64,000 nucleotides of DNA, from the NCBI GenBank assembly GCA_010909165.1, contig VJWM01000239.1, forward strand, positions 124,001-188,000, in the 5' to 3' direction. Both the position numbers and the translations under genes were made by a program. The notes under the pieces are model-generated. The model saw nothing but the letters and a program-made list of their open reading frames with translations. It was not told the origin of the DNA and did no database searches. Of the stretch, positions 21,995-47,272 are shown piece after piece (position 1 is the first letter of the stretch; the number at the start of each line of letters is the position of its first letter). The stretch comes from Anthoceros angustus (lineage: Eukaryota > Plantae > Anthocerotophyta).

Positions 21995-22276
21995 TGATGA
22001 GAATCATGGCTGCTCTAGGTAGCAAAATATAGCAAGCAGATAGTAGAAAGCTTTGCACAAAAAGAGTTGTATGCATCGATTATAATAGAAAGTACAAAGC
22101 CTTTATATAGGCTAGGTGGTTATAACATAAGGTGGTTGTAACCATAAGTAGTTCTAACCTCTAAGTGGTTGTAACAACTAGCTACTCAATAAACTACCTA
22201 AAGCCCTAAGAACTAAATTAATCAAAAGTCTTAGGTGCCCTAGTGAAGAGTGCCCTAAATAGGTCATATTTCATCA
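21995..22276 (-). repeat. Copia 5' LTR (~282 bp)
   Basis: Terminal inverted repeat TGATGA...TCATCA, adjacent PBS, and a partial second copy at 15478. Confidence 0.85.
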
Positions 22277-23107
22277 CAGACATGCCGGTGGCGATACGGC
22301 TAATTGTCCAGCGGTAGAAGTTCATAGCCCTTAATTTCAGGGGACAGAATAATTGCGGTTGAGTGGCTTCGAATGTCAAAGTTCTCGTGTAAACTTGCTT
22401 CGTTTAGCCTTGAGCACGCCTCCAGGCCAGGCTTTGCAAGACACAGTTGCGAGCAAGAATGCAGTTTTGCTCAATAGTTGCCAGCAGGAACACGCCCGGA
22501 AATGCCTTTATGGACAATTACATCTTCCAACTCCATGTACGGATTCTACAAGTGGGCCAAATGTGTGCCCAAGATCTCACTAGAAACGGGAATCACAAAC
22601 TATAGTACTATTACAAGATTGATCACCGGTTGTATGGGGCACTGTTGTGGGATGCACAGGAACTGCATATCGTGAGGGACAATGCATATGGAAAGGGCTT
22701 GGAGGACATGGACTTCCTTTCGACTCTGTTTCGGCTACATGTAGCACTGATGACACTCTGCACAGAGTGCGAGAGTAGACGAGAGGCACTACTTGAATAC
22801 CTCAAGTATTGGACGGAGGTTGAGGCCATACCGTGGGCTTAGACAGCGGTCACCTTGCTCCGGGCTGTGGTGGACGGTGATGTTTGGGTGGGCGGACATT
22901 GTCGTGCAGGAGCTTGTGCACTTTTTTTGGTTCTCATCTATTCTCCTCTATCACCTGGGTGATGAGATTAGTACACGGGGGAAAGGCCCCCGTAGCCGAT
23001 CTGGTCATAGTTATGTTATAACAAGTTTTCCTGCCGTATGGCGAGACACCTCTTTCGTTGCGACACCTTTGATCCTTTCAACAATGGCTCTCCAGCTTTT
23101 TTGCCGC

Positions 23108-23676
23108 TGTCGTGGCACCAGACTTGTTTTACAAGAATATATATAGTAGCCTAGAGGTAGGCTGGCTATATATGTGATTTTGGCCATTAGGAAATAGCTA
23201 TTAATTAGCTTACCCCATATGAAGCTATTTAACTGACATTATCGTGATAGGTTATTAGGCCATTTAGGTCATTTCTAGAACCAGGGCTTCAAACCCGGGT
23301 GGCTCGTGGGCTACATCATGAAGCCCGCTGCTGCAACGCCAAAGGATCACGCGAGGTGGTGGCCTCATCACACCGAGAGGGAGGTGCTAGCTCATGATGG
23401 CGGCCAAGACCTCAAGACTGGCGATGGCAGCTGCAACAACCAGTTGTCGAAGTCCGTGGAAAGGGAATGTTGCTGAGACTCACGCAAAACCGCGGTGTTG
23501 CTGGATTTCTGATTGGAATGCAAGGTTTTGGTGTGCATGTGGCTCAGAACGATTGCAATGTGTGTGGGTGCTGCAGCAGGTCACGGATTTACCAACTCCA
23601 GGCAGCCCGTGTAGGGCAGCCCTTTGATTCGTATTTGCACCGAGGTGCGCCACAGACGCGGCGCTGCTGGCTTGTC
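23108..23676 (+). repeat. 5' terminal repeat A1 of the DNMT-gypsy element
   Basis: Starts TGTCGTGGCACC; homologous to 43799-~44358 and 45589-~46146. Homology stops at ~23676 without a terminal CA. Confidence 0.88.
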
Positions 23677-23677
23677 T

Positions 23678-23690
23678 ACTTCGACAACTG
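23678..23690 (+). promoter_or_regulatory. Putative self-priming primer binding site (Tf1-like)
   Basis: ACTTCGACAACTG directly after A1 is the exact reverse complement of CAGTTGTCGAAGT at 23441-23453 inside A1. No TGG-type tRNA PBS was seen. Confidence 0.7.
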
Positions 23691-23829
23691 CTTTCAATTG
23701 CTGGAGCTCACGTGTGAGGCGAGTGAGCTGGTGGAGGCGGCCGTGCAACTCTAGCAAGGCAGCATCCCCACACGCCCTGATTGTGCAGCAGAAGCTGCAT
23801 TTCATCTGCAGCAAGCTGCCCAAGTCTTC

Positions 23830-24190
23830 CAGCGTTCATAGCGATCGCCCCACAGGTTGCCGTCGATTTGCATACCAGTGTTCGCCTTGTTGAGACAAAT
23901 CTGTTGGTACCATTTTTGTCTACTTTCGAGTGCAATCCAGGGACTGAATGCCTTGGAGAGGTTGAGCACTTAGGGTTCAGGTGTGGAAATTGGCTATTTG
24001 CAGCCATCAGCGTTCATAGCGATCGATCCACAGGTCGGTTTCCTGATTTGCATACCAAAGTGTTCGCCTTGTTGAGACAAATCTGTTGGTACCATTTTTG
24101 TCTACTTTCGAGTGCAATCCAAGGACTGAATGCCTTGGAAAGGTTGGGCACTTAGGGTTCAGTTGGGGAAATTGGCTATTTGCAGCCATC
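23830..24190 (+). repeat. ~180-bp tandem duplication in the 5' leader of the DNMT-gypsy element
   Basis: CAGCGTTCATAGCGATCG...AAATTGGCTATTTGCAGCCATCA occurs at 23830 and 24008. Confidence 0.85.
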
Positions 24191-27100
24191 ACTTCCCTTG
24201 TTGCAGCATAGGTGCTAGGATAGTGATATTCCAGGTCCCTTTGCTTACTGAGGAGAAGGATCAGAGTTGCAGCGTTGGTGTGTTCAGAATTTTCGTTTTC
24301 ACATTGATTCTGTGGCTGGGGTTTTGCTTTCTCGGAGGCTGCCTTGCAGCACTTGCTTACCTAGCTGGTGGCTGATCTCTGGCGTGCTGTCTACATGGGC
24401 AATGCCCTCGACGAGGAGGAGGTAGTCCACGCATCGACTGAGGACAAGGGACGTGCCAGCCAGGGTCTTTGCAAGGAGGCGGCCTGGCAGCGGCTGTCTC
24501 TAGGAGGAGACCCAGCGGGAGCAGATCCTGGTGCTGAGCAGCTACAACTGCTGCAGGCACAAGTTGGTCCCTTTGCTAACCGGCCCCGATCCAGTTGCAC
24601 CAGATTTTGGTGACTTGAGGCAGGATAGTGGAGGCTAAGGTGCTGACCATTCATTGGTGATTTCAACAGCACAAGGAGGATAGACTAAAGCTGACCTCTC
24701 GGAGGATCTGATACCATGGAGTCAGGACCATCAAGTAGGCACGAAAAATTCTCAGGCAGGCCTGGGACTATGTCTTTGAGAGATTTCCGCCACGTGTGAG
24801 TGAGGCAATCAGCCGGGTGAAGTTCAAGCACTGCGTTGTACAATCACCTGTACATGTTCGAACAGCTGTCTGCCTACATGGCTGATGAGGCATTGGATTT
24901 GTCGAGGCTCACCAAGCAGATTTGACGCCACGGTGCAAACCTTGAATCCTTTGCACCAGGGGCGCTGCAGCTAGCCTACAATGCCAAGTTGCAGGCCGCC
25001 ATTACAGCTCATCAACAGGCCATTGCTAATGGCACTGTTGCCACCGTCAGCCTCCTACAGTGGTGAGCCCCTCACCCCAGCGGAGAGGACAACAGCAGCA
25101 GATTGATGAGTTCATCCAGACTCCCAAGCATGCCAACCCCGTGGAGGAGTTTCTGAAGATTCTGGAAAAGGCCTTCCCCTCAAAACTCCGGAGAAAATCG
25201 CTGAGTTGGCTACTTTTGCGAGGAAGAAAGGGAGACAGTCCAGATGTGCTTCCGTAGGCTGCAAAAGCTACGTGAGGGTACTGGCATGTTGACGGATCAG
25301 GAGGCGGAGAAATTCTTAGTTGCCCTGGAGGGTGATTCTCTTTTCACTTCCAGCTTGTGTCCTCCTTGGTGGACAAATATGGTGATAACTACACCTTGGA
25401 GCAAGTGCATGAAGAGGCGGAGAAGAAGGAGATCGCCTACCGGTGTTCTCCTCCAAGCATGCCAAGTCCTTCCATCACTACCAGTCCATGTTCACCAACA
25501 AGGGGTCAACCACGCATGGGGAGCTTCCTCAAGGCAGGGCCAGCTAAGCCAGCCAAGGCAGGGGCAGCAGCTACTACAGCAGCAGCAGCACCTGCGGCTT
25601 ATGCAATTACTGTGGCAGTCCAGAGCACTTGTCCACTGCATGCAAGTGTCCATCGGAGGGTTTGTTCTGCACTCACTGCCAGAAGAACGGCCATGTTGTC
25701 ACGGTCTGCTTCCAGAAACATCCGGAGGCGGTATCAGAAGGCAAAGGCAGAGGTTGGTGGGACAGCAGTGGCACCTACAGCTGCTGCAGCTGGAACAGCA
25801 GGGCCTTCACGGAGCAAACAACAACGTGACAAGGCCAAGGCCAAGAATACTGCCAATGCTGAGAAGGTCGCAACCTTGGAGGCACAACTGGCAGCATTGG
25901 CCACGCAGGTGGCCAATCTCTAGTGCTGAAGGAGCCAAACCGCTGCAGCAGTAGAACTTGTTGCAGTACCTGAAGGAGAGGACTACGGCCTGCCACATCA
26001 GGTCTGCACAGCGGATAAGGCACCAAGTGACAGCCAAGAGGGACGTGTTGTGATGCCGACCAGCTGGGTGGGGCATGTGCTCCCAAATACCACGCTGGAC
26101 ATTACATCAGCAGCTACTGGACCTGTCACTGGGCAACGAGGGGCGAGGGCAGTGATGCCTCAATCCTATGTGCCATTGCCGCCAGGTTCTGCCATTCCGA
26201 TCAGGGGCAGAGCCATTCTTCATCAGGTCAGAGCCAAGTGGATCAGCCCCTCAAAGGGGCAGGGCATATCACATGCGGAAAAATTGTACTTGCTTCCACA
26301 GGCTGTCACTGCTGAACAGGTGGCTAAGAGGCTCACGGAGATCCCACTCTTCACTCTCCAGGAGCTTGGAGTTACACCCAGCCGGCTGCAGCAAATGATG
26401 CAGACACTAGAAGTTGTGGCCACATGCAATGAGCCCGATCCTGTGGTTGCTCATGCCCGATTGTGGGAACTCCCACCAGACAGATCGTCACGCTGTGACA
26501 GCAGCCTTCAGCCCATGGAGCAGCCACGAATGCATTCCGGCTTGCTGGAAGGAGTCTGCAGTGTACAGGTGGCAGGCCAAGTTGGTGACAGACCACGAGT
26601 GCAGCCCCAACAGGCTCAACACCCGGGTTAGCAACGCTGTTGTTGTCGAGCAGGGCACGTGACGGTGAATGGTTACGCACCCAGGGTGGTGCTGCTTGAC
26701 ACAGGTGCACAGCCAGTCATAATCGGCAAGGTGCTGGCAGCCAGGTTGCATCTGAAGGGTGATGCTCTTCGCACATCACCCTGGAACATCAGGACTGCTT
26801 CCAGGGCAATTGAGCCAGTGTGTGGGAAACCATCCGACCGTGGATATTACCCTTAACCCGGCACGCCAGATGAGATGACCTTGTCATTGCCCTGTCTTGT
26901 GACCACAGCCACCAACTCGATGTCTTGTTGGGTCAAGAATTTTGTACCCACCAGGCATTGGCGTGGACAACTGGACGGAACAAGCCTTTACAGGCCTGAT
27001 TGGAGACAAGGGGGCTCCGTGTGGCGCATCTGCCACTGGACCTTCATGGTAAAACAGTTGCTGATGTGGCCTCGCTTGTAGCCTGCCAAATGGTTTGTGA

Positions 27101-27369
27101 CATTCAGTCTTGCAACCTTGGCGAGCTAGTGAGGACACTGCCCATGTAGAAGCGGCTGGAGTCTGCAGCTGATGAGGACTCACCTGGCAGTGGCAGCACT
27201 TTGTCTCAAGCCATGGCTCATCCAGACTACCCTGCTGAGGTGGCCGCACGTTTGCAGAATGCCAAGGCTCAATTGCAGCGTGTCCAGAGCCTTGTGGCTA
27301 CAGGGTTGGCGCATCCCACACAGGACAAGCTGAACTGCACTGTGATCACGTGGGCACCCTCTCAGCCTG

Positions 27370-28270
27370 AACTAACGGTGGTAGAGCTATTTGGGGTATC
27401 TGCACTGGCTGGAGGCTTTGCTATTGACGGGCTCACTATCCGGCTATGTCTATTGTGACAAGGACCCAATAGCCAGGGACATTGCAGCCTTCAGACTGCT
27501 TGGGCTGCAACAGCGCTTTCCAGCAACTACCCCAGAGGCCACTCACAGCGTTTTTACGGCCTGGCCACAGGATGTGCAGTACATCCAACAGGCCCACATC
27601 CATGCTTTGGGACCTGTGGACATGGTCATCGCTGGCTGGGAATGCCAGGGGTTTTCCAGGGCAGGCCGTGGCCAAGGCTTAGAAGATGCACGTTCAGGCC
27701 TCTTTCGGGACTTGCACCAGGTGCTCGCTCAGCAAGATAATCCACACTGTGCTTATCTCTTGGAAAACACACCTGCCCAGCTGGACTCACGCCCACATGT
27801 GCAACAGGACATGGTGATTGTGCAGCATTATGTGGGCTCCCATATGGATGCTGCCCAGGTGGGGTAGCTATGCCCTGAGCTACGCAATTATTGGACAAAC
27901 CTTGTCCCTCTTTGATTCTTGAGCTAGCCTTACGTGGCACCACCAGGGATCCCCACTTGCAGCTGCAGCTGGTCTTGGAACCACATCAAGCCAGTCACTG
28001 CTAGTGCGTGCCTTGGTTCCCTACCAATGTGCCAGGGCAGCCGAGACAGGCGTTGCCCACGCCGTGAGTTTTCCAGGCTCTTTTGCATACAGAGCTCAAG
28101 GCAATGGCATGCTCCTTAACACTACCACTCAGCAATGGGAGGAACCTGGTAGAGGAGGCGAGGCGCCTGATGGGTTTCCAAACAGGGCAGCACCTCAAGT
28201 CACTCGACCCCAGTGCTGCAGCCATAGGCAGAGCCATGGACCTTCACGCCATTACTTGGCTGGTCAGCCT
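27370..28270 (+). CDS. DNMT3-like C5 cytosine methyltransferase domain within gypsy pol (copy 1; frameshifted in this assembly)
   Basis: Motifs in order: I LTVVELFG, II YVYCDKD, III PQDVQ, IV GPVDMVIAGWECQGFSRAG, GLEDARSGLF, VI YLLENT, VIII MDAAQVG...RNYWTNL, IX EARRLMGF, X IGRAMDLHAI. Confidence 0.88.
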
Positions 28271-29912
28271 CTGCCTCGCCTTTCAATTGCACGCCAAGTT
28301 GCAGCTGTAGCCCTTCCTAGCTTGCTGGCCAGTATGTGCCCAGCAGATGCTGTCCATTTTCCCTTTCCTGGCTACACTCACCTACCCTTTTGGCCAGATG
28401 CTGGGGGTGGAGCAGCCTACATGGGGAAACAGGTCTGCTTTTTCCGCATCTGACCACAAGGGAAGTGAGCATGGAGCATCAACAAAGGTCACAGCTGATA
28501 ATTTCCCTTGGAAGATGGGGATGAGCTCACAGACCTGCAGAAGCAGAGGATTCACGTGCTACTGCTGAAGTATCGAGACTGCTTCGCCTTCTCAATGAAG
28601 GAGCTGAAGAGGTGTAATGTGTTGACCTTTAGGATCAACCTTACCACCTCGGAGCCCATCTACAGGAGAAGGTACCGTCTCAGCAAGACAGAATGGGACA
28701 TGGTGGACGCCCGCTGCAGGAATTGCTGGAAGCAGGGTTGATCAGGCCCTCCAGCAGTGACTATGCTGCTGCCACCGTGATAAGAAGGACAGCCAAGGGC
28801 TGTGGACTGAGAAGAGGATGCGGGACTATCGTCCCATAAATGTAGCAACAGCACAGGATCGGTACCGATGCCGACCCCTGAAGAAATTTTTGACCGCATT
28901 GGGCAGTCAGTCTTCTTCTCCACACTTGACCTACGCCAAGGATTCAACCAGGTGCCGGTTGCTGAGGAGGACATCAAGAAGACTGCCTTCCATGGATCTC
29001 AGCAGCTGTGGGAGTGGCTGGTGATGCCTTTTGGATTTAAAATGCACCAGTCACCTTCCAGAGGATAATGGATCTTGTGCTGGCAGGTGCAGCATATTTG
29101 ATGTGCTACATTGGCGATGTCCTTGTGCACAGGATTTTGAGCAGCACTTGGCACATCTAGAGGATCTGTTCCTTAGGTTGCGGAAGGCTGAGCTCACGTG
29201 CCACCCCTCCAAATGTGAGTTTGGGATGAGCACTGTAGCATACTTGGGACACAAGATCGTGCCCAATGGAGTCATGCCTCATGCAGCCAAGATCCAGGCC
29301 ATTCAGCGGGTGAAGAAGCCCACCAATGTGTCAGCACTACGGGCATTTCTAGGATTGTGCAACTATTACAGGGTGTACATCCAGAATTTCAGCAGGATTG
29401 CTAAACCGCTGAACAACCTATTGCGCAAGGACGTGGAGTGGCTGTGGGATGAGCATGCTCAACAGTCTTTGACACCTTGAAAGAGCGGCTCAGCACATCA
29501 CCCATTATGGCTCGTCCCAATTTTGACAAGCCGTTTGTGCTTCATACAGACTGGAGTAGTCTGGGGCTGGGTGCTGTACTTGCGCAAGAGGATGAGCAGG
29601 GAAGGAACGTGTGATTGCCTTTGCCTCACGCAGCAACAACCGTGCTGAGGCCAATTACAGCAGCTATGAGGGCGAATGCCTCGCTGTTTGGGCAGTCTGC
29701 CACTTCAGACCTTACCTCTATGGGCAGCAGTTTACCCTTGTCACTGACCATCAACCCTTGAAGTGGCTGATGACAAACACAAAGCTCAGCGGAAACTTGC
29801 TCGCTGGGCCATGATTTTGCAGGATTACAACTTCCATGTGGAGCAGGCCGGGGTGTCACATCAGAATGCGGACACCCTCTCCAGGAATCGGATAGCAGCT
29901 GTAGGGATGCAC

Positions 29913-32900
29913 GATTTTTTTTGTTTTAAGAGTGTTTGTATAGCAGTGCTTTGAGAATCGCCCGGTAAGGTCTTTTATACGAGAATGGTCCTTGGCCCTT
30001 GGGATAATAATTTGTTTTTTGAACCTTAGGTTTTTCGACCCCTATAGGTAGGTCGGAGATAGAGTCCTTGGGTTTTGGTGATTTTAGAAATAAGAAAGTG
30101 TCTATATATGTTGGTGCCTACACCGCCGCCACGCGCAAGCGGGAGGTAGCCGCCCACCACGGTCAAGAACGGACGACGCACTGTGGGAGTTTACAACCCT
30201 AGTGGCGAGTGGCCGCCACTGAGAATCGAGACGACACACCAAAGACCGCGAGGTCGCGAATTCGGGCCGAGCGCTGAGCAGCAAGTCGGGCGCGATGCAA
30301 CCGCACCGGCGAGCTCGTCATTGCAGTTGGACGACTACCGTGCAGACGGCGGCGAAAAAGAGAACCAGGCGGTAGCGAAGGAGGAAAAGAGACGCCGAGG
30401 CAAGAGCGCCAACAAGAAGTGGAGGAGACGCGAGGTGGTGTCCTTCACCAGCGCTGGAGTTGGGTTCTTTTCTCAAGAAGGAGAAAGAGATGGCGCCGAG
30501 TCAGGGCCGAAATTTCACTCAAAGGCCCAACATGGACCATCGGAAGGTGAGAGGCAGCCGCGGTCCGGAATTTATGGAGATGAAATGGTGTTAGGCTGTC
30601 AAAGATTGGTGTGCGCAATTGAGAACCAAGTTGCAAGAGGGAGACGCGAGGAAGAGGCCGAAAACTGGATTTGGGACTCTTCGAGGTATGGGCGAGAAGC
30701 ATCGAGGATGGAAGCTTGGTAACCCCAGAAAGAAGACCCCGAGTCGCACCGCGCCATGAAGCCTGGGAAGTGAGAGTGAACAATGGATGGGTGACTCGCC
30801 AACTCGTGTCTGCTGGTGGGATTAGCCAAGTGGATTTTGTGTTTCGCAGAATCGGAAGTTGATCGGGCACTACTCGGTCTTTCTTCATGAGGTGGTTAAA
30901 GGTACTCAAATCGACGGATGATCTTTGAAAGAGCCTGTGAGGAGAGGGCGAATTGTTCTCCCTTCCCTCGACCTCCTTGATTTCACCTTTTCTAATTCAT
31001 GTGTTCGCATTCGTGTCTAACGGAGTTGGAAGTCGGTCCGCCTTCATAGCCGGAAACCGGCCGTGAACTCAAGGTAGAGGAGGAGGAGTGTAAGGAAGAT
31101 TCCGGAAGGATTCCAGAAGCTTGGGAATGCGCCCCTAGAAGATCGGATGAAGGTGGAGGTTTCAAGGGCAAGAAGTGAGGGCGGACGGCCGAACGGGGTG
31201 GGGAAGGGAAGGACACAAGGCAGAAGAGGAACCCCAGCCACACCTAGGGTCACCAGTCGAATCAGCAGGAACGAGAGTGAAGGAGGAGAAAATAAAAGGG
31301 AACGACAAGTTGTGCCCTCTCAGTGGGAGGAGTCGCCGCTAGGAGAGATTGGAGCGGATGAGGAGATTGTGGCAAACCAACCCCTAGAAGAAGAGGGGTT
31401 AGCGATAGCCAAGTCCGCGCGGAGCTCCGAACATTTTTGGCATTTCAACGTCCTACCAAGTGGAGGTGTGACACCGTCATAGAATTGTTGTGGAAGGGAA
31501 TGGGCACGGACAGCCAATCGAACTGCAGCCTTGACTTCGCCATGGCTCGACGCAGTGATCTCCTCGACCAGCCGCCATGGCTCACCGGCCGAGTGTGCCA
31601 ACAGGAAAAGTTGCTCAAGGAGAAGTTGGAGAGCCCGAAGGCGAGAACAAGGTGGCGAGGAGCGCAGACGGAATGCGAGGCGGCCCTATGCAAGGCACAG
31701 GAGCAAAGGCCATGTCCACCCAACAGAGGCCTTAGTGAATCAGTCAAGCGATGCCACAATCGAGGAGCTTCAAGATGAGGTCTCATGAGCCTGTGAACAA
31801 ATGGAAACAATGGCGCCCGAGAAATTCAAGAAGCGGAGAGATATAAGCGAGAGAGAGATGAAGCTAGGGCCGAGTCAAGAGAGAGGTGGCCAAACCAAGA
31901 AGGGCAGAGCCACAAGAACCGCAGAGTCAAGCCACCACCGGGGAAACTACCACCACGGTGGCTAAACCGCCACCGTCGGGAGGAACCGAGGTGGGGAAGT
32001 CACCGAGCGCCGCAGTGGGGATACGATCCGGATTCCAAGGCCTGCCTGTGATTGTCCACGGAGGAGAGGGTAAGAACCTCTCAGAAGAGTGACAGGGCGT
32101 CTGGATGAGGATGCTCATGTCACAGCTGCACTGCATGGTGGTGCTCACTCTAAATGTGTATGTGGTTGTTGGGACGGGAGGCGGCTTGGTGCACATCTTG
32201 GCCGCCACAGGCGTTTACGATGGTTCTTCCGAGCAGGCGGGGCCTACCCCAAGTGGTGATCGAGGAAATGGCGGCGGAAGCTTGAGGCGTGGAGGGAGGA
32301 GCACACGGTGTGTGTCCGCGATGAGGAGGCGGAATAACGGGCCTAGGGCAAACAGCGCCCATGGGAAGGCCGAAAAGCTGCAGGCGTGTGAGGTGGAGGT
32401 TTTGGGGAGAATCGCTCGGATCGGGCGTGGCGGGAGGCGGGCAGGAACCCCAGCCCCTTGAGGGCTAAGCGACAACAGCGGGCCAGCAGCGATTTTAGGA
32501 GGCCAGACATCATAGGCGAGGCTTCTTTTTGGGGTAGAGGATAGGATGTTTTGAGGACCCGTGGGCAGTTTCTGAATTGGTAGGAGGCGCTCGTGGTAGT
32601 GGGCCATATTTTCTAGACACCTTTGGTAGGAGTGGTGGAAATCCACGGTGAATGTATAGAGACCCTTGAGTCTCTCTAGAGACAATTTGGTGTGAACTTC
32701 CGTGTGTTGAAGCTATGAGGTTGATTGGAGGCGTCGATCAAACTCGTTCGATGCACCGCCTTCTCGTCACAGGGGAAGATCACTGGATGGTCGAGGCGGG
32801 TGGCCAAGCTTACGGTGTGGGGGCGGACTCCCTTGAGGCCGTCAAGGCTGCCTCAGTTACCTCTTGCAACCCTTGCTGCTCGGCGTTCTCCTCCTCCGTC

Positions 32901-35900
32901 GTTGTTCCTCTCACTTGTTCAGGCCATGGGTGAGCTCCCCCACTTCCTGGCCGGACGAGCATGTAGCCTCTCCTCCGGTGCTTTCTTCCCTCGTCTATTC
33001 TTTCCGGAGGTCCCTTCCTTCTCCGGGCGGGCGGTATCCCGTCAGACTCACGGCTTCCTCCACATGCGCAACCTTGCGGCGTCGAACTCCTTGCACGTCG
33101 CCTATTCTCCTCCGTCTTCAAAGCGGGCTGGATCGCTCGAAGTCTTGGATTCTCGTTGAGAACCCTGCTGCTCCATGCATCTTGGGTTGCAACTCCAAGG
33201 TGTCCTCCTTCCTCCGCCCGCCCTTCTACCTCCTGCTGTGCAGGGTCCCCAATCTCCCGGGTCTGGCCTCCGATGCCTCCTCACGGCTCGGCCGTGCTTG
33301 CTCCTTCTTGCTCGGCCTTGAGTTGGCGCGGCTCTCGGCGCCTCCCTCCACGGTTCGATCACCATGAGTGATCGCGATCGGCCCGGCCTCCGCCTCCTTG
33401 GCCACCTTCACACGAGCCTCTCTGGCTCAGTCTCGTCGGGCCGCCTCCGCCCGTCGAGCTTTTACCTTGCTGCTCTTGCCTCCTGCGCTGCCTGCGGAGG
33501 TCCTCGGCGCTTGGGCCTCCTTAGGCCCCTTGTGCTCCTCGGTGAAGGAATTTAGTCCGGTCCTGCGGATGGACCCGACCTCCCTCTCGCCTCCGGCGTT
33601 TCCTTCCTCTGTCGGCGAGGTTTCCGCCTCCCCACAGGCTCGGGCCGCACGGCCTGGCTCCACCATCCGCACGGTGGCCTCCACGGTTTTCTCGGTCCAC
33701 AGGTCCCAGGCATACCGTCCATGGTAGCAACCGCCGTGTTTCTTCCACGGCCTCAGTGAGACCCACAAAGTCCGTAGTGGGCGGGCATCTCACGGTCCGT
33801 CAGGACCTCCCCTTGATCGGAGCAAGTCGGGGTTGGGTTCTCGGACCAATCGGGACCCTTAGGTCACGAGTCTTGAGCTTCCCCTCCTTGGCCCTTGGGA
33901 TAATAATTTGTTTTTTGAACCTTAGGTTTTTCGACCCCTATAGGTAGGTCGGAGATAGAGTCCTTGGGTTTTGGTGATTTTAGAAATAAGAAAGTGTCTA
34001 TATATGTTGGTGCCTACACCGCCGCCACGCGCAAGCGGGAGGTAGCCGCCCACCACGGTCAAGAACGGACGACGCACTGTGGGAGTTTACAACCCTAGTG
34101 GCGAGTGGCCGCCACTGAGAATCGAGACGACACACCAAAGACCGCGAGGTCGCGAATTCGGGCCGAGCGCTGAGCAGCAAGTCGGGCGCGATGCAACCGC
34201 ACCGGCGAGCTCGTCATTGCAGTTGGACGACTACCGTGCAGACGGCGGCGAAAAAGAGAACCAGGCGGTAGCGAAGGAGGAAAAGAGACGCCGAGGCAAG
34301 AGCGCCAACAAGAAGTGGAGGAGACGCGAGGTGGTGTCCTTCACCAGCGCTGGAGTTGGGTTCTTTTCTCAAGAAGGAGAAAGAGATGGCGCCGAGTCAG
34401 GGCCGAAATTTCACTCAAAGGCCCAACATGGACCATCGGAAGGTGAGAGGCAGCCGCGGTCCGGAATTTATGGAGATGAAATGGTGTTAGGCTGTCAAAG
34501 ATTGGTGTGCGCAATTGAGAACCAAGTTGCAAGAGGGAGACGCGAGGAAGAGGCCGAAAACTGGATTTGGGACTCTTCGAGGTATGGGCGAGAAGCATCG
34601 AGGATGGAAGCTTGGTAACCCCAGAAAGAAGACCCCGAGTCGCACCGCGCCATGAAGCCTGGGAAGTGAGAGTGAACAATGGATGGGTGACTCGCCAACT
34701 CGTGTCTGCTGGTGGGATTAGCCAAGTGGATTTTGTGTTTCGCAGAATCGGAAGTTGATCGGGCACTACTCGGTCTTTCTTCATGAGGTGGTTAAAGGTA
34801 CTCAAATCGACGGATGATCTTTGAAAGAGCCTGTGAGGAGAGGGCGAATTGTTCTCCCTTCCCTCGACCTCCTTGATTTCACCTTTTCTAATTCATGTGT
34901 TCGCATTCGTGTCTAACGGAGTTGGAAGTCGGTCCGCCTTCATAGCCGGAAACCGGCCGTGAACTCAAGGTAGAGGAGGAGGAGTGTAAGGAAGATTCCG
35001 GAAGGATTCCAGAAGCTTGGGAATGCGCCCCTAGAAGATCGGATGAAGGTGGAGGTTTCAAGGGCAAGAAGTGAGGGCGGACGGCCGAACGGGGTGGGGA
35101 AGGGAAGGACACAAGGCAGAAGAGGAACCCCAGCCACACCTAGGGTCACCAGTCGAATCAGCAGGAACGAGAGTGAAGGAGGAGAAAATAAAAGGGAACG
35201 ACAAGTTGTGCCCTCTCAGTGGGAGGAGTCGCCGCTAGGAGAGATTGGAGCGGATGAGGAGATTGTGGCAAACCAACCCCTAGAAGAAGAGGGGTTAGCG
35301 ATAGCCAAGTCCGCGCGGAGCTCCGAACATTTTTGGCATTTCAACGTCCTACCAAGTGGAGGTGTGACACCGTCATAGAATTGTTGTGGAAGGGAATGGG
35401 CACGGACAGCCAATCGAACTGCAGCCTTGACTTCGCCATGGCTCGACGCAGTGATCTCCTCGACCAGCCGCCATGGCTCACCGGCCGAGTGTGCCAACAG
35501 GAAAAGTTGCTCAAGGAGAAGTTGGAGAGCCCGAAGGCGAGAACAAGGTGGCGAGGAGCGCAGACGGAATGCGAGGCGGCCCTATGCAAGGCACAGGAGC
35601 AAAGGCCATGTCCACCCAACAGAGGCCTTAGTGAATCAGTCAAGCGATGCCACAATCGAGGAGCTTCAAGATGAGGTCTCATGAGCCTGTGAACAAATGG
35701 AAACAATGGCGCCCGAGAAATTCAAGAAGCGGAGAGATATAAGCGAGAGAGAGATGAAGCTAGGGCCGAGTCAAGAGAGAGGTGGCCAAACCAAGAAGGG
35801 CAGAGCCACAAGAACCGCAGAGTCAAGCCACCACCGGGGAAACTACCACCACGGTGGCTAAACCGCCACCGTCGGGAGGAACCGAGGTGGGGAAGTCACC

Positions 35901-37363
35901 GAGCGCCGCAGTGGGGATACGATCCGGATTCCAAGGCCTGCCTGTGATTGTCCACGGAGGAGAGGGTAAGAACCTCTCAGAAGAGTGACAGGGCGTCTGG
36001 ATGAGGATGCTCATGTCCTGGCCGCTCGCATGGTGGTGCTCACCTAAATGTGTGGTTGTTGGGATGAGGGGCGTAAACTATTCGACATCTTGACCACGCG
36101 CTACTGGTTCTTCCGAACGGGAGCGGGGCCTACCCCCAAGTGGTGATCGAGGAAATGAGCGGAAGCTGTGGCGTGGAGGGAGGAGCACACTGCTGTCCAA
36201 CGATGAGGAGCGGAATAATGTGCCTAGGGCCTATAACGACGCCCATGGAAGACGCCAAGAAACCGCAGCAAGTGATGCCGAGGTGGAGGTTTTGGGGAGA
36301 ATCGCCGGATCGAGGCGCAGGAGAGCGAGCGACGGAACCCCACCTACAGTGGCTAGGCAAAGAATCATGACGCTACGCTTTTAGGAGAGCGCGACATCAG
36401 GCCGAGGCTTTTTGGGGTAGGGGATAGGATGTTTTGAGGACCCGTGAGTAGTTTCCGAATTGGTAGGAGCGCCGTGGTAGTGGGCCATATTTTCTAGACA
36501 TCGGTAGGAGTGATGGCCGTGGCGGGGCTGGGGTCGGGCGCTTCTGTGTGCTCTGGTTGGGGCACGGAAGGAGGAGGCGGGAATTTCTTCCCATACTTCC
36601 ACAGGTGGTGAGGGGTCCGTTCAGACGTATGAGTCGGAATCCTCGATCGTCCTCCTCCCGAGTCCGTTTGGCGGCCGGCCTCCTCCCTCCGGCGCCCTTG
36701 CCGCTCCACTTGGCGGGGCCTCAGTCCTTTCGGGCGCTCGCTCAAGCTCTCCTTCCTTGAGGAGCTCGAAATGCCCCATACATGGATCGGGTATGGGGGC
36801 GGCCCAGAATGGCGGCTTCTCGGTCTGAGCTTGCGAGCCTCACAGCTAAGCGAAGATAATCCTTCCCAGTCGCCCTCTTCCCCATTGCTGCAGCGTGCGG
36901 GAATATAGATTATCACCAAGGTGATCCACCTTGGTGAGTAGGTTCGATGGACAATGATCACCGCCCTTACTCATTGTCAGCGGTCGGATGTCGACCGTTG
37001 GTGGTCCGTTCGTCGAGCCTTAGCCAGCTGCGTGGGCCCCTTCCCGCCTTGAGGGGCTCGGCACCACTCCCCTCTTCCTCCTTGGGGCGGTTGTAGGCCG
37101 CCTCGGGACCTCAAGGTCCATCGCCTTGGGTCCTCCGGAGGTTCTTGGACCGCACCTCCTTTATTGACCGCGCCTTGACATCTTGGGCAAACTCCGGACG
37201 GTGACTTGTCAAATGTCGGACCATCTGGAACACATCCAAATGCCACTCCTGCACCAATTCTCCCGCTTCACGGGCGAGCCCAAAGTCCGGATAGCGCGGG
37301 TCACAATGTTACGGTTCCATGGCTCCCAAACTTCCGCGGGCTTTTTGGGTGCCATCGCCTCCT
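29913..37363. mobile_element. GC/CpG-rich repeat family fragments (probable retrotransposon accessory-ORF region; no pol seen)
   Basis: Homologous in inverted orientation to 48300-50600, e.g. TPWSCN peptides at ~33190 and ~50185. ORF start MAPKKPAEVWEPW..RNIVT lies at 37355 on the minus strand. Confidence 0.65.
29989..36017. repeat. Apparently identical 2133-bp direct repeat (29989-32121 / 33885-36017), offset 3896 bp
   Basis: The ORF track entries are identical at an offset of 3896. Looser homology continues for ~500 bp beyond the identical block. Confidence 0.92.
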
Positions 37364-39319
37364 CCTTGGAGCAAGTGCATGAAGAGGCGGAGAAGAAGGA
37401 GATCGCCACCTCGGTGTTCTCCTCCAAGCATGCCAAGTCCTTCCATCACTACCAGTCCATGTTCACCAACAAGGGGTCAACCACGCATGGGGAGCTTCCT
37501 CAAGGGCAGGGCCAGCTAAGCCAAGGCAGGGGCAGCAGCTACTAGCAGCAGCAGCACTGCGGCATTTTATGCAATTACTGTGGCAGTCCAGAGCACTTGT
37601 CCACTGCATGCAAGTGTCCATCGGAGGGTTTGTTCTGCACTCACTGCCAGAAGAACGGCCATGTTGTCACGGTCTGCTTCCAGAAACATCCGGAGAGGCG
37701 GTATCAGAAGGCAAAGGCAGAGGTTGGTGGGACAGCAGTGGCACCTACAGCTGCTGCAGCTGGAACAGCAGGGCCTTCACAGACAACACAAGTGACAAGG
37801 CCAAGGCCAAGAATACTGCCAATGCTGAGAAGGTCGCAACCTTGGAGGCTGGCAGCATTGGCCACGGTGGCCAATCTCTAGTGCTGAAGGAGCCAAACCT
37901 GCAGCAGTAGAACTTGTTGCAGTACCTGAAGGAGAGGACTACGGCCTGCCACATCAGGTCTGCACAGCGGATAAGGCACCAAGTGACAGCCAAGAGGGAC
38001 GTGTTGTGATGCCGACCAGCTGGGTGGGGCATGTGCTCCCAAATACCACGCTGGACATTACATCAGCAGCTACTGGACCTGTCACTAGGCAACGAGGGGC
38101 GAGGCAGTGATGCCTCAATCCTATGTGCCATTGCCGCCAGGTTCTGCCATTCCGATCAGGGGCAGAGCCATTCTTCATCCAGGTCAGAGCCAAGTGGATC
38201 AGCCCCTCAAAGGGGCAGGGCATATCACGTGCGGAAAAATTGTACTTGCTTCCACAGGCTGTCACTGCTGAACAGGTGGCTAAGAGGCTCACGGAGATCC
38301 CACTCTTCACTCTCCAGGAGCTTGGAGTTACACCCAGCCTGCAGCAAATGATGCAGACACTAGAAGTTGTGGCCACATGCAATGAGCCCGATCCTGTGGT
38401 TGCTCATGCCCGATTGTGGGAACTCCCACCAGACAGATCGTCACGCTGTGACAGCAGCCTTCAGCCCATGGAGCAGCCACGAATGCATTCCGGCTTGCTG
38501 GAAGGAGTCTGCAGTGTACAGGTGGCAGGCCAAGTTGGTGACAGACCACGAGTGCAGCCCACCAACAGGCTCAACACCGGGTTAGCAACGCTGTTGTTGA
38601 TAATCGAGCAGGGCACGTGACAGTGAATGGTTACGCACCAGGGTGGTGCTGCTTGACACAGGTGCACAGCCAGTCATAATCGGCAAGGTGCTGGCAGCCA
38701 GGTTGCATCTGAAGGGTGATGCTCTTCGCATCACCCTGGAACATCAGGACTGCTTCCAGGGCAATTGAGCCAGTGTGTGGGGAAACCATCCGACCGTGGA
38801 TATTACCCTTAACCGGCACGCCAGATGAGATGACCTTGTCATTGCCCTGTCTTGTGACCAGCCACCAACTCGATGTCTTGTTGGGTCAAGAATTTTGTAC
38901 CCACCAGGCATTGGCGTGGACAACTGGACGGAACAAGCCTTTACAGGCCTGATTGGAGACAAGGGGGCTCCGTGTGGCGCATCTGCCACTGGACCTTCAT
39001 GGTAAAACAGTTGCTGATGTGGCCTCGCTTGGCCTGCCAAATGGTTTGTGACATTCAGTCTTGCAACCTTGGCGAGCTAGTGAGGACACTGCCCATGTAG
39101 AACGGCAGCTGGAGTCTGCAGCTGATGAGGACTCACCTGGCAGTGGCAGCACTTTGTCTCAAGCCATGGCTCATCCAGACTACCCTGCTGAGGTGGCGCA
39201 CGTTTGCAGAATGCCAAGGCTCAATTGCAAGCGTGTCCAGAGCCTTGTGGCTACAGGGTTGGCGCATCCCCACAGGACAAGCTGCTGAACTGCACTGTGA
39301 TCACGTGGGCACCTCTCAG

Positions 39320-40240
39320 CCTGAACTAACGGTGGTAGAGCTATTTGGGGTATCTGCACTGGCTGGAGGCTTTGCTATTGACGGCTCACTATCCCGGCGC
39401 TATTGTGACAAGGACCCAATAGCCAGGGACATTGCAGCCTTCAGACTGCTTGGGCTGCAACAGCGCTTTCCAGCAACTACCCCAGAGGCCACTCACAGCG
39501 TTTTACGGCCTGGCCACAGGATGTGCAGTACATCCAACAGGCCCACATCCATGCTTTGGGACCTGTGGACATGGTCATCGCTGGCTGGGAATGCCAGGGG
39601 TTTTCCAGGGCAGGCCGTGGCCAAGGCTTAGAAGATGCACGTTCAGGCCTCTTTCGGGACTTGCACCAGGTGCTCGCATGGGCTCAGCAAGATAATCCAC
39701 GCTGTGCTTATCTCTTGGAAAACACACCTGCCCAGCTGGACTCACGCCCACATGTGCAACAGGACATGGTGATTGTGCAGCATTATGTGGGCTCCCATTC
39801 CTTATGGATGCTGCCCAGGTGGGTAGCTATGCCCACAGGCTACAATTATTGGACAAACCTTGTCCCTCTTTCGTTCGAGCTAGCCTTACGTGGCACCACC
39901 AGGGATCCCCACTTGCAGCTGCAGCTGGTCTTGGAACCACATCATCAGCCCAAGCCAGTCACTGCTAGTGAGCGTGCACCTTGGTTCCCTACCAATGTGC
40001 CAGGGCAGCCGAGACAGCGTTGCCCACGCTCGTGAGTTTTCCAGGCTCTTTTGCATACAGAGCTCAAGGCAATGGCATGCTCCTTAACACTACCACTCAG
40101 CAATGGGAGGAACCTGGAGTAGAGGCGAGGCGCCTGATGGGTTTCAAACAGGCTCTACAGCAGCACCTCAAGTCACTCGACCCCAGTGCTGCAGCCATAG
40201 GCAGAGCCATGGACCTTCACGCCATTACTTGGCTGGTCAG
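39320..40240 (+). CDS. DNMT3-like C5 cytosine methyltransferase domain (copy 2)
   Basis: Same motifs as copy 1: VVELFG, GPVDMVIAGWECQGFSRAG (Cys codon 39592-39594), YLLENT, NYWTNL, RRLMGF, IGRAMDL. Confidence 0.88.
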
Positions 40241-42229
40241 CCTCTGCCTCGCCTTTCAATTGCACGCCAAGTTTGCAGCTGTAGCCCTTCCTAGCTTGCT
40301 GGCCAGTATGTGCCCAGCAGATGCTGTCCATTTTCCTTTCCTGGCTACACTCACCTACCCTTTTGGCCAGATGCTGGGGGTGGAGCAGCCTACATGGGGA
40401 AACAGGTCTGCTTTTTCCGCATCTGACCACAAGGGAAGTGAGCATGGAGCATCAACAAAGGTCACAGCTGATAATTTCCCTTGGAAGATGGGGATGAGCT
40501 CACAGACCTGCAGAAGCAGAGGATTCACGTGCTACTGCTGAAGTATCGAGACTGCTTCGCCTTCTCAATGAAGGAGCTGAAGAGGTGTAATGTGTTGACC
40601 TTTAGGATCAACCTTACCACCTCGAGCCCATCTACAGGAGAAGGTACCGCTCAGCAAGACAGAATGGGACATGGTGGACGCCCGCTGCAGGGAATTGCTG
40701 GAAGCAGGGTTGATCAGGCCCTCCAGCAGTGACTATGCTGCTGCCACCGTGATGCCGCCAAGAAGGACAGCCAAGGGCTGTGGACTGAGAAGAGGATGCG
40801 GGACTATCGTCCCATAAATGTAGCAACAACAGGCACAGGATCACCGATGCGACCCTGAAGAAATTTTTGACCGCATTGGGCAGTCAGTCTTCTTCTCCAC
40901 ACTTGACCTACGCCAAGGATTCAACCAGGTGCCGGTTGCTGAGGAGGACATCAAGAAGACTGCCTTCCATGGATCTCAGCAGCTGTGGGAGTGGCTGGTG
41001 ATGCCTTTTGGATTTAAAATGCACCAGTCACCTTCCAGAGGATAATGGATCTTGTGCTGGCAGGTGCAGCATATTTGATGTGCTACATTGGCGATGTCCT
41101 TGTGCACAGCGAGGATTTTGAGCAGCACTTGGCACATCTAGAGGATCTGTTCCTTAGGTTGCGGAAGGCTGAGCTCACGTGCCACCCCTCAAATGTGAGT
41201 TTGGGATGAGCACTGTAGCATACTTGGGACACAAGATCGTGCCCAATGGAGTCATGCCTCATGCAGCCAAGATCCAGGCCATTCAGCGGGTGAAGGAGCC
41301 CACCAATGTGTCAGCACTACGGGCATTTCTAGGATTGTGCAACTATTACAGGGTGTACATCCAGAATTTCAGCAGGATTGCTAAACCGCTGAACAACCTA
41401 TTGCGCAAGGACGTGGAGTGGCTGTGGGATGAGCATGCTCAACAGTCTTTTGACACCTTGAAAGAAAGCGGCTCAGCACATCACCCATTATGGCTCGTCC
41501 CAATTTTGACAAGCCGTTTGTGCTTCATACAGACTGGAGTAGTCTGGGGCTGGGTGCTGTACTTGCGCAAGAGGATGAGCAGGGAAGGAACGTGTGATTG
41601 CCTTTGCCTCACGCAGCAACAACCGTGCTGAGGCCAATTACAGCAGCTATGAGGGCGAATGCCTCGCCGCTGTTTGGGCAGTCTGCCACTTCAGACCTTA
41701 CCTCTATGGGCAGCAGTTTACCCTTGTCACTGACCATCAACCCTTGAAGTGGCTGATGACAAACACAAAGCTCAGCGGAAACTTGCTCGCTGGGCCATGA
41801 TTTTGCAGGATTACAACTTCCATGTGGAGCACAGGCCGGGGTGTCACATCAGAATGCGGACACCCTCTCCAGGAATCCGGATAGCAGCTGTAGGGATGCC
41901 ACGGAGGCTAGGCAGGATGAGGATGATCAGCCACGAGGACAGGCAGATTTTGCTGTAGCTGCCTTGGTGGCCATGACATGCCTTGGACAGCTTGAGGTTG
42001 CAGCAGCTCAACATGTCCCCAAGGACATATGGGAGGACGTGCATACAATTCAGTTTGTGCAAACTGGCCAGCTAGGTGAAGATTGGACAGCAGCAGAATG
42101 TGGAGCGTGCAGCAACGTGCTGCTGCCTACTACTGGAGAGATGGGTACCTCATCCGGAGGCGGGCCCATGGTGTGGAGCAGCTGGTTCCACCTCCCGGAG
42201 ATCGTGCTGATCTCATTCAAGAGTACATG

Positions 42230-43030
42230 ATGACATGGGGCATTTTGGAGTCAAGAGGACCTACAGCTTGCTGGCCCCTCACTTCCACTGGTTTGGCATG
42301 CATGCACAAGTCCGGGAATGTCTTGCTGTGAGCCATGTGACCGCGTCAAAACATCCTTCACTATGCAGCACCCAGAGCTGCACCACTCCCCATCATGGGG
42401 CTCTTCTTCAGGTGGTCCTGCGACCTCATAGGAGGCTGCCCAAGACACCAAGGGGTAGCGTGTACATCTTGGTGATGATAGAGCACTTTAGCAAGTGGGT
42501 GGAGGCCGTGGCGTTGCCTGACAAGTCATCCAGGAGCACGTCACAGGCTTTCTTGCAAGCGTGCTGAGCCGCTTTGGCAGTTCGGTGTCTCACCGACCAA
42601 GGTTCAGAATTCGAGGGAATTCCAAGACCTGTTGGATGTGGCACTAATTGACCACAGGAGGACCAGCAGGGACCACCCTCAGGCCGACGGGTTGGCTGAG
42701 AGGATGGTTCAAACCATCAAAAGGGCCTCAAAGCTCCTGCAGCAGCGAAGGGGATTGGGACATCATGCTGCCTTATATATTGATGGGGTACCGAATGAGC
42801 CGGCACGCTTCCTAGCTCATTTCTCACCCTATTTCCTTCTTTTGGCAGGAGCCTGTTCCACCTAGCTCCATCGCTAAACAGATGCAGGCCGTGGTCTCTG
42901 GATGATCCAGCCACTTGGGCTAGGATGATAGGTGACAGGGCTGCCCTTTTCCGTCGAGTGATGCCGATGGCTATGGAAAATTTGCACATTGCACAGCATC
43001 GGGACACACTAAAGGTACGCCCACACTGCA
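42230..43030 (+). CDS. DDE retroviral-type integrase domain (frameshifted)
   Basis: HHCC remnant GHFGVKRT...C; core WSCD / TDQGSEF / GLAERM; FSPYFLLFGR. Confidence 0.88.
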
Positions 43031-43271
43031 GCGCTTCAGCCCAAGCTTAAGAAATTCCAGGCTGGGGATTTGTATCTTCAACGCCAAAGCTGACGACACT
43101 CTTGAGACTTCCAGCAGCAGACATGTGCTTAGGATCAGGAGGTCAAGTCCAATGGAGTGTTGGTGCTGCAGGGATCTGATGGCAGGGTCATTTCTGATCA
43201 CACCAAAATTGTGCCCGTGCCATCTCCCTAACCTTGACCCCACCATTGTAACAGCTGATTGGATCCCGGAT

Positions 43272-43428
43272 TACCCATGCCAGATCTGCAGCCGCACGGA
43301 TGACGCCGAGCTCATGCTGCTGTGATGGATGCAATGGGGGTTCCACCTTTTCTTGCAGCCACCTTTGGCTGAGGTTCGAGCAACTTTGGTATTGTTCAAA
43401 GTGTGCTGAAACTGCTACTCAGGTGTGA
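43272..43428 (+). CDS. C-terminal PHD finger (C4HC3) of gypsy pol
   Basis: CQICSRTDDAELMLL(C)DGCNGGFHLF..QPPLAEV...WYCSKC, reconstructed across small indels. Confidence 0.82.
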
Positions 43429-43693
43429 CTGTTTCAATTCGTTTTCAGTTGTGAAGATGGATGTGATTGCATTGCAAGGTTTCATGGCTGCTAGTCACAA
43501 TTGGGTTCATGTGGCATCTGCCATTCTACGTGTGACAGGTGCTATGGCCCCATAGCGTTGCAATCGCTTGAGCATGGCTGTGATGCTGATGCTGTTTGGG
43601 GTTTCCTTATTCTTTCCTTCCAGGTGCTGGATAATTCCAGTTCTCCTTCTTTGCCATGCTGCCTTTCTTCTAGCCCGTCCATCATCTGGGGGG

Positions 43694-44463
43694 TGTGGCA
43701 TGAATTTCCTTTTGCCCTGTTTTCTTGTTGCAGCTGAAGGTCGGGCCGGACTGGGCGCGGATGCACGTACCTTGTGTGGGTGATGCACCCATACGACCTG
43801 TCGTGGCACCAGACTTGTTTACAAGAATATATATAGTAGCCTAGAGGTAGGCTGGCTATATATGTGATTTTGGCCATTAGAAATAGCTATTAATTAGCTT
43901 ACCCCATATGAAGCTATTTAACTGACATTATCAGGATAGGTTATTAGGCCATTTAGGTCATTTCTAGAACCAGGGCTGCAAACCCGGCGGGTGGCTCGTG
44001 GGCTACATCATGAGCCCGCTGCTGCAACGGCCAAAGGATCACGCGAGGTGGTGGCCTCATCACACCGAGAGGAGGTGCTTGCTCATGATGGCGGCCAAGA
44101 CCTCAAGACTGGCGATGGCAGCTGCAACAACCAGTTGTCGAAGTCCGTGGAAAGGGAATGTTGCTGAGACTCACGCATAAAACCGCGGTGTTGCTGGATT
44201 CTGATTGGAATGCAAGGTTTTGGTGTGCATGTGGCTCGGAGCGATTGCAATGATGTGTGGGTGCAGGTCACTGGTTACCAACTCCGACGGCAGGTGTAGG
44301 AAAGCCCTTTTTGAGATTTGCACGAGGTGCGCCACAAAGACGTGGCGCTGGCTTATACAATTGTGGCATGGATGTAATTTGCCCCTGCTTTCTTGTTGCG
44401 TACCAAGGTCCGACTGGAGCGCCGGATGCACGTACCTTGTGTGAATAGTGATGCACGACGACA
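43694..44463 (+). repeat. 3' split repeats: B1 (43694-43798), A2 (43799-~44358), B2 (44362-44463)
   Basis: B begins TGTGGCATG and contains GGATGCACGTACCTTGTGTG; it flanks A2 on both sides. A G6 tract (43688-43693, PPT-like) precedes B1. Confidence 0.8.
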
Positions 44464-45330
44464 CCAAGAATCTCACATCATCTTGAAGATCCCATTCAGA
44501 GGAACAATATTCCATTTTTCATCCTACCCGCTTGCCTTCAACTTTTCCAAAAGCTCATGCTCGATCCCGATCACCGATTATCGAACAATTGAGTACTTGC
44601 CATACAGTTGAATAATACGTTAGCCATATTTGTGGGTCTTCAAGTATTCTCGCAATGTATTTCAATTCACAAGAGCGCAAGTGTACTTTACTTTTCACAA
44701 GGCATATATTTTATTATTTATCGACCTCTTCTCACAAAACATGTATCGAGAAAGGGTCTCCCAATTTGCATTTCCTCTACCTACCCTAGTCAATTTTTCC
44801 CACCTTCCATTCGCTATCGCCTTCCACACAACCACATGTTGTGCTCATAGAATGATAAGCTCTATCCAATTTATACTACTAACTGCTTCCAGCAATAAGT
44901 CCAAGATGTAAGCCGAACAAGGAGTCCACACAATACTAGGATATTAAACTTAAATGATCTCACCAGCATGCTTGCAAATTTTTTTTGTCTAGCAAATTCA
45001 AATATTTTATAGATATTTGAAAGTAAACATCACGGTCCGTATTTGAATTTTTGATCTAAAGTAATCCCGTAAGACGCTAACAAAGGGCGCTTTCTTCTGT
45101 CACTCCAACCATCACTCAAGATCGAGCATGCAGTTGACCATGAAGCTTTGACGATTTCCAACTTTTTATGGATGGAGGCCTTTTCCTCATTAAGCAAAGT
45201 GGTTCTCAAAGCATCAAAACTAGGGGGCTTACATGAGTGACCCATGTCATTAGAAAAAGGAATGGTACTACGTTGAATATATACATAAAAACACATGGCT
45301 GCAACTGCATCTATAAGCTTCCTCCTCAAC
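44464..45330 (-). mobile_element. hAT-type (DUF659-like) transposase remnant
   Basis: Minus strand AMCFYVY..., KPPSFDALRTTLLNEEK, CSILSDGWSDRRKRPL, IVWTPCSAYILDLLLE. Confidence 0.75.
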
Positions 45331-47120: not shown

Positions 47121-47272
47121 CTCCTCAACAACTCTCATGCCTTCTCCATGGTTGTTGTGGCGCGACTTCGGCGGCTGGCAGGCGCGCCACAATCCCGTAT
47201 CGTTGTAGCAGGGGTCCGTTCCCAAGAGAATGATAGGCTCGGTTGGCGTTTTCAGCGATTCTCACCTCAGCG

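Follow-up and report, generated by a model that had tools for sequence, protein, structure and literature searches.

The question raised by this locus is how a retrotransposon that carries a DDE integrase can come to lie between split direct repeats, ordered A1...B1-A2-B2, in place of two identical long terminal repeats (LTRs). The locus belongs to a 64,000-nucleotide stretch of the Anthoceros angustus (Anthocerotophyta) assembly GCA_010909165.1 (contig VJWM01000239.1, positions 124,001 to 188,000, forward strand), here called the window and numbered from its first letter, in which the element occupies positions 23108-44463 (Table 1). By its coding content the element is a Ty3/gypsy retrotransposon, and we propose, with a probability of roughly 0.6, that its complementary DNA (cDNA) is closed end to end into a 2-LTR circle, which the DDE integrase would then open at a CA-GC-TG palindrome inside the LTR. 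A gypsy variant with a non-canonical integration step is strongly implied by the sequences compared here; the layout is known, and the mechanism that we deduce from it is apparently unpublished.

The A1...B1-A2-B2 layout of the window element is genuine and heritable. Self-comparison finds repeat A starting at 23108, 43799 and 45589 and repeat B at 43694, 44362, 45480 and 46156, with no B adjoining A1 and a tract of six G residues directly 5' of B1, just as an earlier reading of this DNA (the original prediction) had described. A1 (ending near 23677) and A2 (ending near 44360) are 92.4% identical and differ mostly by insertions and deletions, and B1 (ending near 43797) and B2 share 76.5% identity, with an alignment score of 82 against 25 for the best of 1000 shuffles. 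The outer ends read TGTCGTG and CGACA, again as described earlier, and the tandem duplicate of the 3' end closes in CACGACA at 46247. The original prediction had CACGACA directly abutting TGTCGTG as a palindrome; short-read contigs of runs X1 and X2 do contain such a palindrome at the B/A joint, albeit with a 2-base GC spacer: the 16 bases of the joint, CACGACA-GC-TGTCGTG, are perfectly palindromic. Short-read contigs of another organism (X3/X4) read CACCACA-GC-TGTCGTG at this joint. Both ends of the window element are the two halves of this internal palindrome.

A metagenome scan gave 402 confirmed relatives, of which 80, in 56 clusters, were kept; A and B queries mapped on these 80 loci (numbered with the prefix L) matched 52, the other 28 being short or of other families. 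When 42 long loci were compared with themselves, L087, L118, L121 and L147 proved to have A...B-A-B. In a sister family, which shares 65% DNA identity with the window across 820 bp of integrase, the 15 5' ends all have A alone, the 3' ends comprise ten distinct B-A-B and 16 B alone, and there is one solo A-B. The 3' count excludes L112, whose A2 is truncated, the interrupted L141 and L143, L110 and L120, which stop at contig ends, and L124, the solo A-B. Ordinary LTRs in other copies had been named as the finding that would speak against the original prediction, and in the sister family an ordinary LTR pair occurs at 0/15 of the 5' ends and 0/26 of the 3' ends, the window having none either. 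The target-site duplication (TSD) is 4 bp long and perfect in six of the eight two-ended sister copies (L084, L101+L108, L121, L124, L129 and L147), and agrees in 3/4 bases in L087 and L118, with agreement of unpaired flanks in 8/459; L099 and L143, with damaged ends, and L088, with A inverted and 3/4 bases, are excluded from this count. The spacer at the B/A joint is two bases long in 12/12 joints (GC in eight, AC in three, TA in one), and the palindrome core, following a G tract and a short B, is present also in L068, L069, L072, L116 and L228. The last of these, of chlorophyte type, lies across a 100/100 split from the window in an RNase H tree with midpoint root and an unsettled position of the window inside its own group, with the palindrome core on both sides.

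Some of these loci deserve brief comment. L228, a eukaryotic gypsy element, is a contamination: its contig is assigned to a bacterial metagenome bin. L068, L069, L072 and the X2 contig read B-A-internal, resemble collapsed multi-copy assemblies and were not counted as layouts, and an A-internal-B form is found also in L070 and L138. In L092, L099, L108 and L124 the end of B consists of one to three units of 15 bp ending in CACGACA, whose number can vary between B1 and B2 of one element; in L086/L088 (4831-5122) the A repeat on the 5' side runs opposite to pol. Decayed copies gave no support for a stable hairpin at the palindrome.

The coding region keeps the gypsy order of gag (with a zinc knuckle), protease, reverse transcriptase (RT), RNase H and integrase, with a C5 DNA methyltransferase between protease and RT and a PHD-like finger after the integrase; in the window the frames are broken. 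A PHD finger (PF00628) lies at the equivalent position in the sister copy L084, and in the intact relative L069 Ty3 Gag-Pol is the best PDB match for both RT and integrase. Tyrosine recombinase gave no match in the 82 open reading frames (ORFs) of the window, L069 and L084, a search whose sensitivity is reduced by the broken frames of the window. The integrase catalytic motif is retained in relatives, where the second D and the E are 34 residues apart in 18/18 proteins and 36/36 locus matches, one residue fewer than in Ty3 and foamy virus (PFV); in the noisy window sequence the distance is 103 nt against 105 expected. This D(34)E spacing, at 42595-42698 in the window integrase and in its relatives, may be a clade-wide marker and may have a link to the unusual cut proposed here.

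The methyltransferase piece matches 928 protein clusters, the long ones being gypsy polyproteins in which it stands either before RT, as in the window, or after RNase H; the named methyltransferase-bearing relatives nearest to the window are from Closterium and Scenedesmus. A retrotransposon-borne C5 methyltransferase (27385-27864 and 39409-40032) lies here beside land-plant-like host genes, and elements that bear one are reported, in the portion of that source covered, to be absent from land plants such as tracheophytes (PMC6338049). The viral contigs searched yielded phage methyltransferases or chance palindromes only. In L069 (5083-5091) and L072 (about 4660) a lone in-frame TAG followed by CAR-YYA separates the gag-protease-methyltransferase frame from RT, and L116 has TAA CAA at this position. 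The TAG with CAR-YYA matches the stop-readthrough signal of tobacco mosaic virus; in the noisy window this position is illegible.

A G-rich tract lies directly 5' of B in 31/31 of the related loci listed, and the 13 bases that directly follow A1 are complementary to a site within A1 (0/1000 shuffles). In three sister copies the self-complement spans 13-15 bp, with the inner site about 28 bases 3' of a TATA box, and it is significant in 7/9 copies tested. Such a self-priming arrangement is predicted for Tcn1/Tf1-type elements (PMC6317226, in the part covered), and we predict it here too, rather than a primer site of tRNA type. Because B starts at the polypurine tract and A ends at the self-priming site, the LTR made by RT would be B+A, with ends lacking TG and CA, in line with the original prediction that tract and primer site together set the LTR. 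An LTR of A+B that has lost its 5' B was considered and rejected, since at every 5' end examined A1 is followed immediately by the primer site.

The A/B joint links the two ends of this B+A LTR. In relatives it is exact in 7/11 cases, carries one additional base in two, lacks two bases in one and is altered in one, and a G tract is present in 0/12 relatives' joints. The GGG at about 46147, formerly read as a relic of the polypurine tract, occurs in one noisy copy only and was discarded. Among ten elements the B1-B2 distance within one element is 0.091, against 0.127-0.129 between elements (0/10000 permutations), and B1 and B2 form no separate lineages, both of which are expected if B2 is recopied from B1 in every cycle.

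Similar repeats have been recorded before, and our comparisons with published systems draw on those portions of each source that were covered, among them figure legends and supplements. For KnitGypsy-Dnmt3 of Klebsormidium nitens a legend gives DIRS-type repeats (A-coding-B-A-B) and gypsy domains (de Mendoza et al., 2018; PMC5890265, Fig. 4c); the window element, compared with it by description only, likewise joins a C5 methyltransferase in gypsy pol to DIRS-like repeats, and the text, in the parts covered, gives no palindrome, TSD, primer or mechanism. In the Chlamydomonas library of Craig et al. (PMC9940879 supplement, 2022), Gypsy-14a, 14b and 18 read A...G tract-B-GC-A-B with variable A/B joints, Gypsy-14a and 14b start with TGTCGTG as the window element does, and at least 16 internal entries, from families 2, 3 and 6-11, have CA-GC at their end; in 15 of those 16 listed entries, the exception being 10a, the matching LTR ends in the same short B. 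The B of Gypsy-7a is 8 bp long, its left LTR being without the final 8 bp of the right one (Fig. 6 legend), and Gypsy-7a_cRei is active in laboratory Chlamydomonas, with 86 new insertions in one strain. Gypsy-2, 3, 5-11, 14 and 18 thus resemble the window element in G tract, B, CA-GC-TG, A and B, in TG...CA ends and in the PHD finger, and in Gypsy-7a and 14a the second D and the E are 34 residues apart (counted by eye), as in the relatives counted above. They differ in the length of B (6-55 bp against 105-180 here), and the internal part of the short-B families starts with TGG, a tRNA-type site unlike the self-priming one here. Gypsy-7a has no methyltransferase listed and is filed as an ordinary LTR/Gypsy element, with no mechanism in the parts covered. 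Gypsy elements of this layout have been recorded before, independent of the methyltransferase, and the layout is not, as had been supposed, a tyrosine-recombinase hallmark foreign to DDE elements.

Within this library Gypsy-5a, whose internal part starts with GC-TG, was considered as a mirror form and rejected, being the usual layout on the opposite strand; the internal parts of Gypsy-21 and 24 also start with GC-TG, and these entries look mirror-like at first sight. Gypsy-5a, with its reversed PHD ORF, may be related to REM1 of C. reinhardtii, a gypsy element with a PHD finger that was reportedly described by Perez-Alegre et al. in 2005 under the title 'a new type of LTR retrotransposon', and that description may already include the repeats or a model. 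Our literature searches, with the REM1 paper, subscription papers, theses and bioRxiv supplements beyond reach, turned up no description of either the palindrome or the integration route.

Insertion with a 4-bp TSD, as a DDE integrase performs it, is supported by the sister copies, and the element ends, the lost spacer and the TSD fit a cut by integrase after CA; that the cut falls at the internal palindrome is very probable. In the sequence of events that we favour, the transcript would start inside A1 and prime itself on the complementary site after A1, and plus-strand synthesis would start at the G tract, giving an RT product B-A-internal-B-A. The end of A would be joined to the start of B, slightly imprecisely to judge from the variation of the joint, and we lean towards this joining, and hence a circle, before any cut. 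The integrase would then cut CA^GC-TG on both strands, leaving a pair of CA-3' ends, each with a 5' overhang of two bases, as integrase 3' processing normally does. Insertion would leave A-internal-B-A-B and a 4-bp target duplication. The A-internal-B copies could derive from 1-LTR circles, from double cuts, from a later deletion between B1 and B2, or from collapsed assembly.

Several observations weigh against this scheme. The circle carries two identical palindromes, of which only the upstream one is seen to be used: the mirror form A-B-A-internal-B is found at 0/15 5' ends, against B-A-B at 10/26 3' ends (Fisher p=0.007), and a plain circle does not explain its absence. Possibly the upstream LTR becomes double-stranded first or, as another guess, the attachment site spans the circle joint. 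The self-priming complement is not significant in L121 and L139 (2/9 tested). The nearest B1 of a B2 is its own in only 3/10 elements, and A1/A2 divergence (0.096-0.149) exceeds that of B1/B2 (0.074-0.121) in 4/4 full copies. A single sister family, assembled from short reads, supplies most of the counts, and its B-only ends are possibly collapsed repeats. For the window family itself, no A2/B2 joint was seen in the short-read contigs examined, and the X2 contig reads B-A-internal, unbranched. The flanks of the window copy, CCGC on the 5' side and CCAA on the 3' side, match in 2/4 bases and give no clean TSD; a TSD within the 4-6 bp looked for is seen in the sister copies. The short-read contigs align from 23106, and the flanks next to A1 and B2 are outside their coverage. 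Finally, the circle is deduced from final sequences. We note that the bases that break the TSD in the 5' flank, CC-GC, equal the GC spacer, as if a 5' overhang had survived gap repair, in one noisy case; a 5' flank ending in GC occurs in 0/18 related 5' flanks.

Of the alternatives the one that survives best, although we consider it unlikely, reverses the order of events: the left palindrome of a linear cDNA would be cut, both ends inserted, and the end of A joined to the start of B by host repair. The final sequence, the TSD and a variable A/B joint would be identical, cutting both palindromes would give A-internal-B directly, and break repair fits the larger scars at the joints of Gypsy-14a, which holds an inverted insert, and 14b, whose B has lost about 21 bp. 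Against it, 7/11 joints are exact, the left-right asymmetry is equally unexplained, and in Gypsy-7, 8 and 9 the piece cut off would be only 6-8 bp, which seems short for an end bound by integrase. A B of this length would be easier to explain if joining came before cutting, and while the final sequence alone cannot separate the two orders, the 6-8 bp B of some algal families favours the circle.

Copying of the DIRS/Ngaro kind is less likely still. Here a transcript would run from A1 to B2, template jumps on the internal B1-A2 would rebuild the ends, the A/B joint would be inherited, and the integrase would act on such ends or on the junction. PAT, Ngaro and TOC1 do share split A1-B1-A2-B2 direct repeats with the window element (PMC4157794), and such copying would account for the single permutation seen. 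In separate families, however, B2 begins with the base that follows the polypurine tract, and the end of A2 falls at the primer site; the A/B joint differs among copies, B1 and B2 are without separate lineages, and the predicted start site lies within A rather than at its start. Unlike PAT, Ngaro and TOC1, the window family has a DDE integrase, TG...CA ends, a 4-bp TSD, a polypurine tract and a primer site. The resemblance of the layout to tyrosine-recombinase elements might also suggest a tyrosine recombinase acting in trans at the B/A junction, DIRS-style, which is most improbable given the ORF scan reported above, the variable 4-bp TSDs, TG...CA ends and lost 2-base spacer that fit DDE chemistry, and the intact catalytic motif of the integrase. 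A local accident, in which an ordinary LTR element was rearranged in the window by deletion, duplication or misassembly, would suit the noisy sequence, its two large near-identical duplications and the lack of a clean TSD, and can account for the extra duplications; as an explanation of the layout it has almost nothing in its favour, being refuted by related loci: independent loci and a curated algal library show the layout, palindrome and TSD again, and short-read contigs from two organisms contain the B/A joint.

Retrovirology has long asked whether circular cDNA ever serves as a genuine precursor of integration; in retroviruses it is a side route at best. Foamy virus integrase cuts a palindromic LTR-LTR junction in vitro after CA on both strands (PMC1180852), and HIV-1 2-LTR circles are described as a reserve substrate for integrase (PMC4372172); in the parts of these reports covered, the palindrome arises by joining of the cDNA ends and the side route restores a normal provirus. 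In the window family, by comparison, it is encoded inside the LTR and its use is seemingly the normal route. The window element also resembles the Tcn1/Tf1-sushi chromoviruses of non-seed plants, in which a self-priming site replaces the tRNA site and which, compared by description only, have ordinary LTRs and mostly chromodomains (PMC6317226, in the part covered).

The sequences point to a clade in which cutting at the internal palindrome is the normal route, and with Gypsy-7a_cRei active in the laboratory the mechanism is directly testable. It is conceivable, though we hold this only tentatively, that an old gypsy clade extending from chlorophytes to land plants has both integrase sites in a U3 palindrome and an obligatory 2-LTR circle, by a mechanism as yet undescribed that Gypsy-7a_cRei is using now; such a clade, on the same tentative footing, would have arrived by convergence, and with DDE chemistry, at the layout of DIRS/Ngaro elements. 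If real, an integrase able to cleave a short defined palindrome and to integrate a circle would have mechanistic and technical interest. Element finders that need two identical LTRs, a criterion given in the covered part of PMC6317226, would miss such elements and their A-internal-B copies, and their share in algal and non-seed plant genomes is likely to be undercounted.

Table 1. Coordinates in the window of the element, its parts and its surroundings
Feature	Position	Strand	Basis
5' flank CCGC	23104..23107	+	sequence
A1, 5' repeat, starts TGTCGTG; putative downstream U3 + R + U5	23108..23677	+	
Predicted transcript 5' end / self-primer	23441..23453	+	13-bp complement of 23678-23690
Predicted self-priming primer-binding site, directly 3' of A1	23678..23690	+	
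First copy of gag (zinc knuckle), protease, C5 DNA methyltransferase, RT, RNase H; frames broken	24380..29910	+	translations, PF00145, PF00078
Unrelated insert of 7.4 kb containing an internal duplication of 2.6 kb; outside the element	29911..37363	.	ORFs without Pfam match
Second copy of 25394-29910 (end of gag through RNase H); duplicated recently, or an artefact of assembly	37364..41899	+	PF00098, PF00145
DDE integrase (H2C2 + rve core), then PHD-like finger; frames broken	41900..43410	+	PF17921, PF00665, translation
G6 polypurine tract	43688..43693	+	sequence
B1, putative U3 start; ends CACGACA in short-read contigs	43694..43797	+	
B/A palindrome CACGACA-GC-TGTCGTG, noisy in window; predicted integrase cut site	43791..43805	.	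core conserved in relatives and Chlamydomonas entries
A2	43799..44360	+	self-comparison
B2, joined to A2 end without G tract; ends CGACA	44362..44463	+	
3' flank CCAA, identical reading in duplicate	44464..44467	+	
Tandem duplicate of B1-A2-B2 and 1 kb of flank; possibly assembly artefact	45479..47274	+	

The window is noisy long-read sequence, from which the X2 short-read contig differs by 62 gaps in 2.1 kb. The two copies of 25394-29910, which flank the unrelated insert, are 96.6% identical (19 mismatches, 139 gap positions), and 43693-45478 and its tandem duplicate are 90.8% identical (105 gap positions); both large duplications may be assembly artefacts. Duplications and insert inflate the span of the element to 21 kb, and the sum without them, about 9.5 kb, fits the 7751-base internal X2 contig. 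Contig depth (about 126 in X1 for the initial part of A and 41-65 for the interior; 164 and 148, respectively, in X2) is inconsistent and was not used as a measure of copy number.

The insert at 29911-37363 and the region 47158-56000 belong to a G+C-rich, purine-skewed repeat family without Pfam matches, which has direct and inverted copies across 30-56 kb and whose start also ends the tandem duplicate. Upstream of the element, the minus strand carries a Ty1/copia remnant (19672-20903; gag and pre-integrase domains), flanked by 107-bp direct repeats (15478-15584 and 21999-22105) of 97% identity, and an F-box/kelch host gene lies at 10087-11394 on the plus strand, its best named match being a lycophyte protein with 51% identity.

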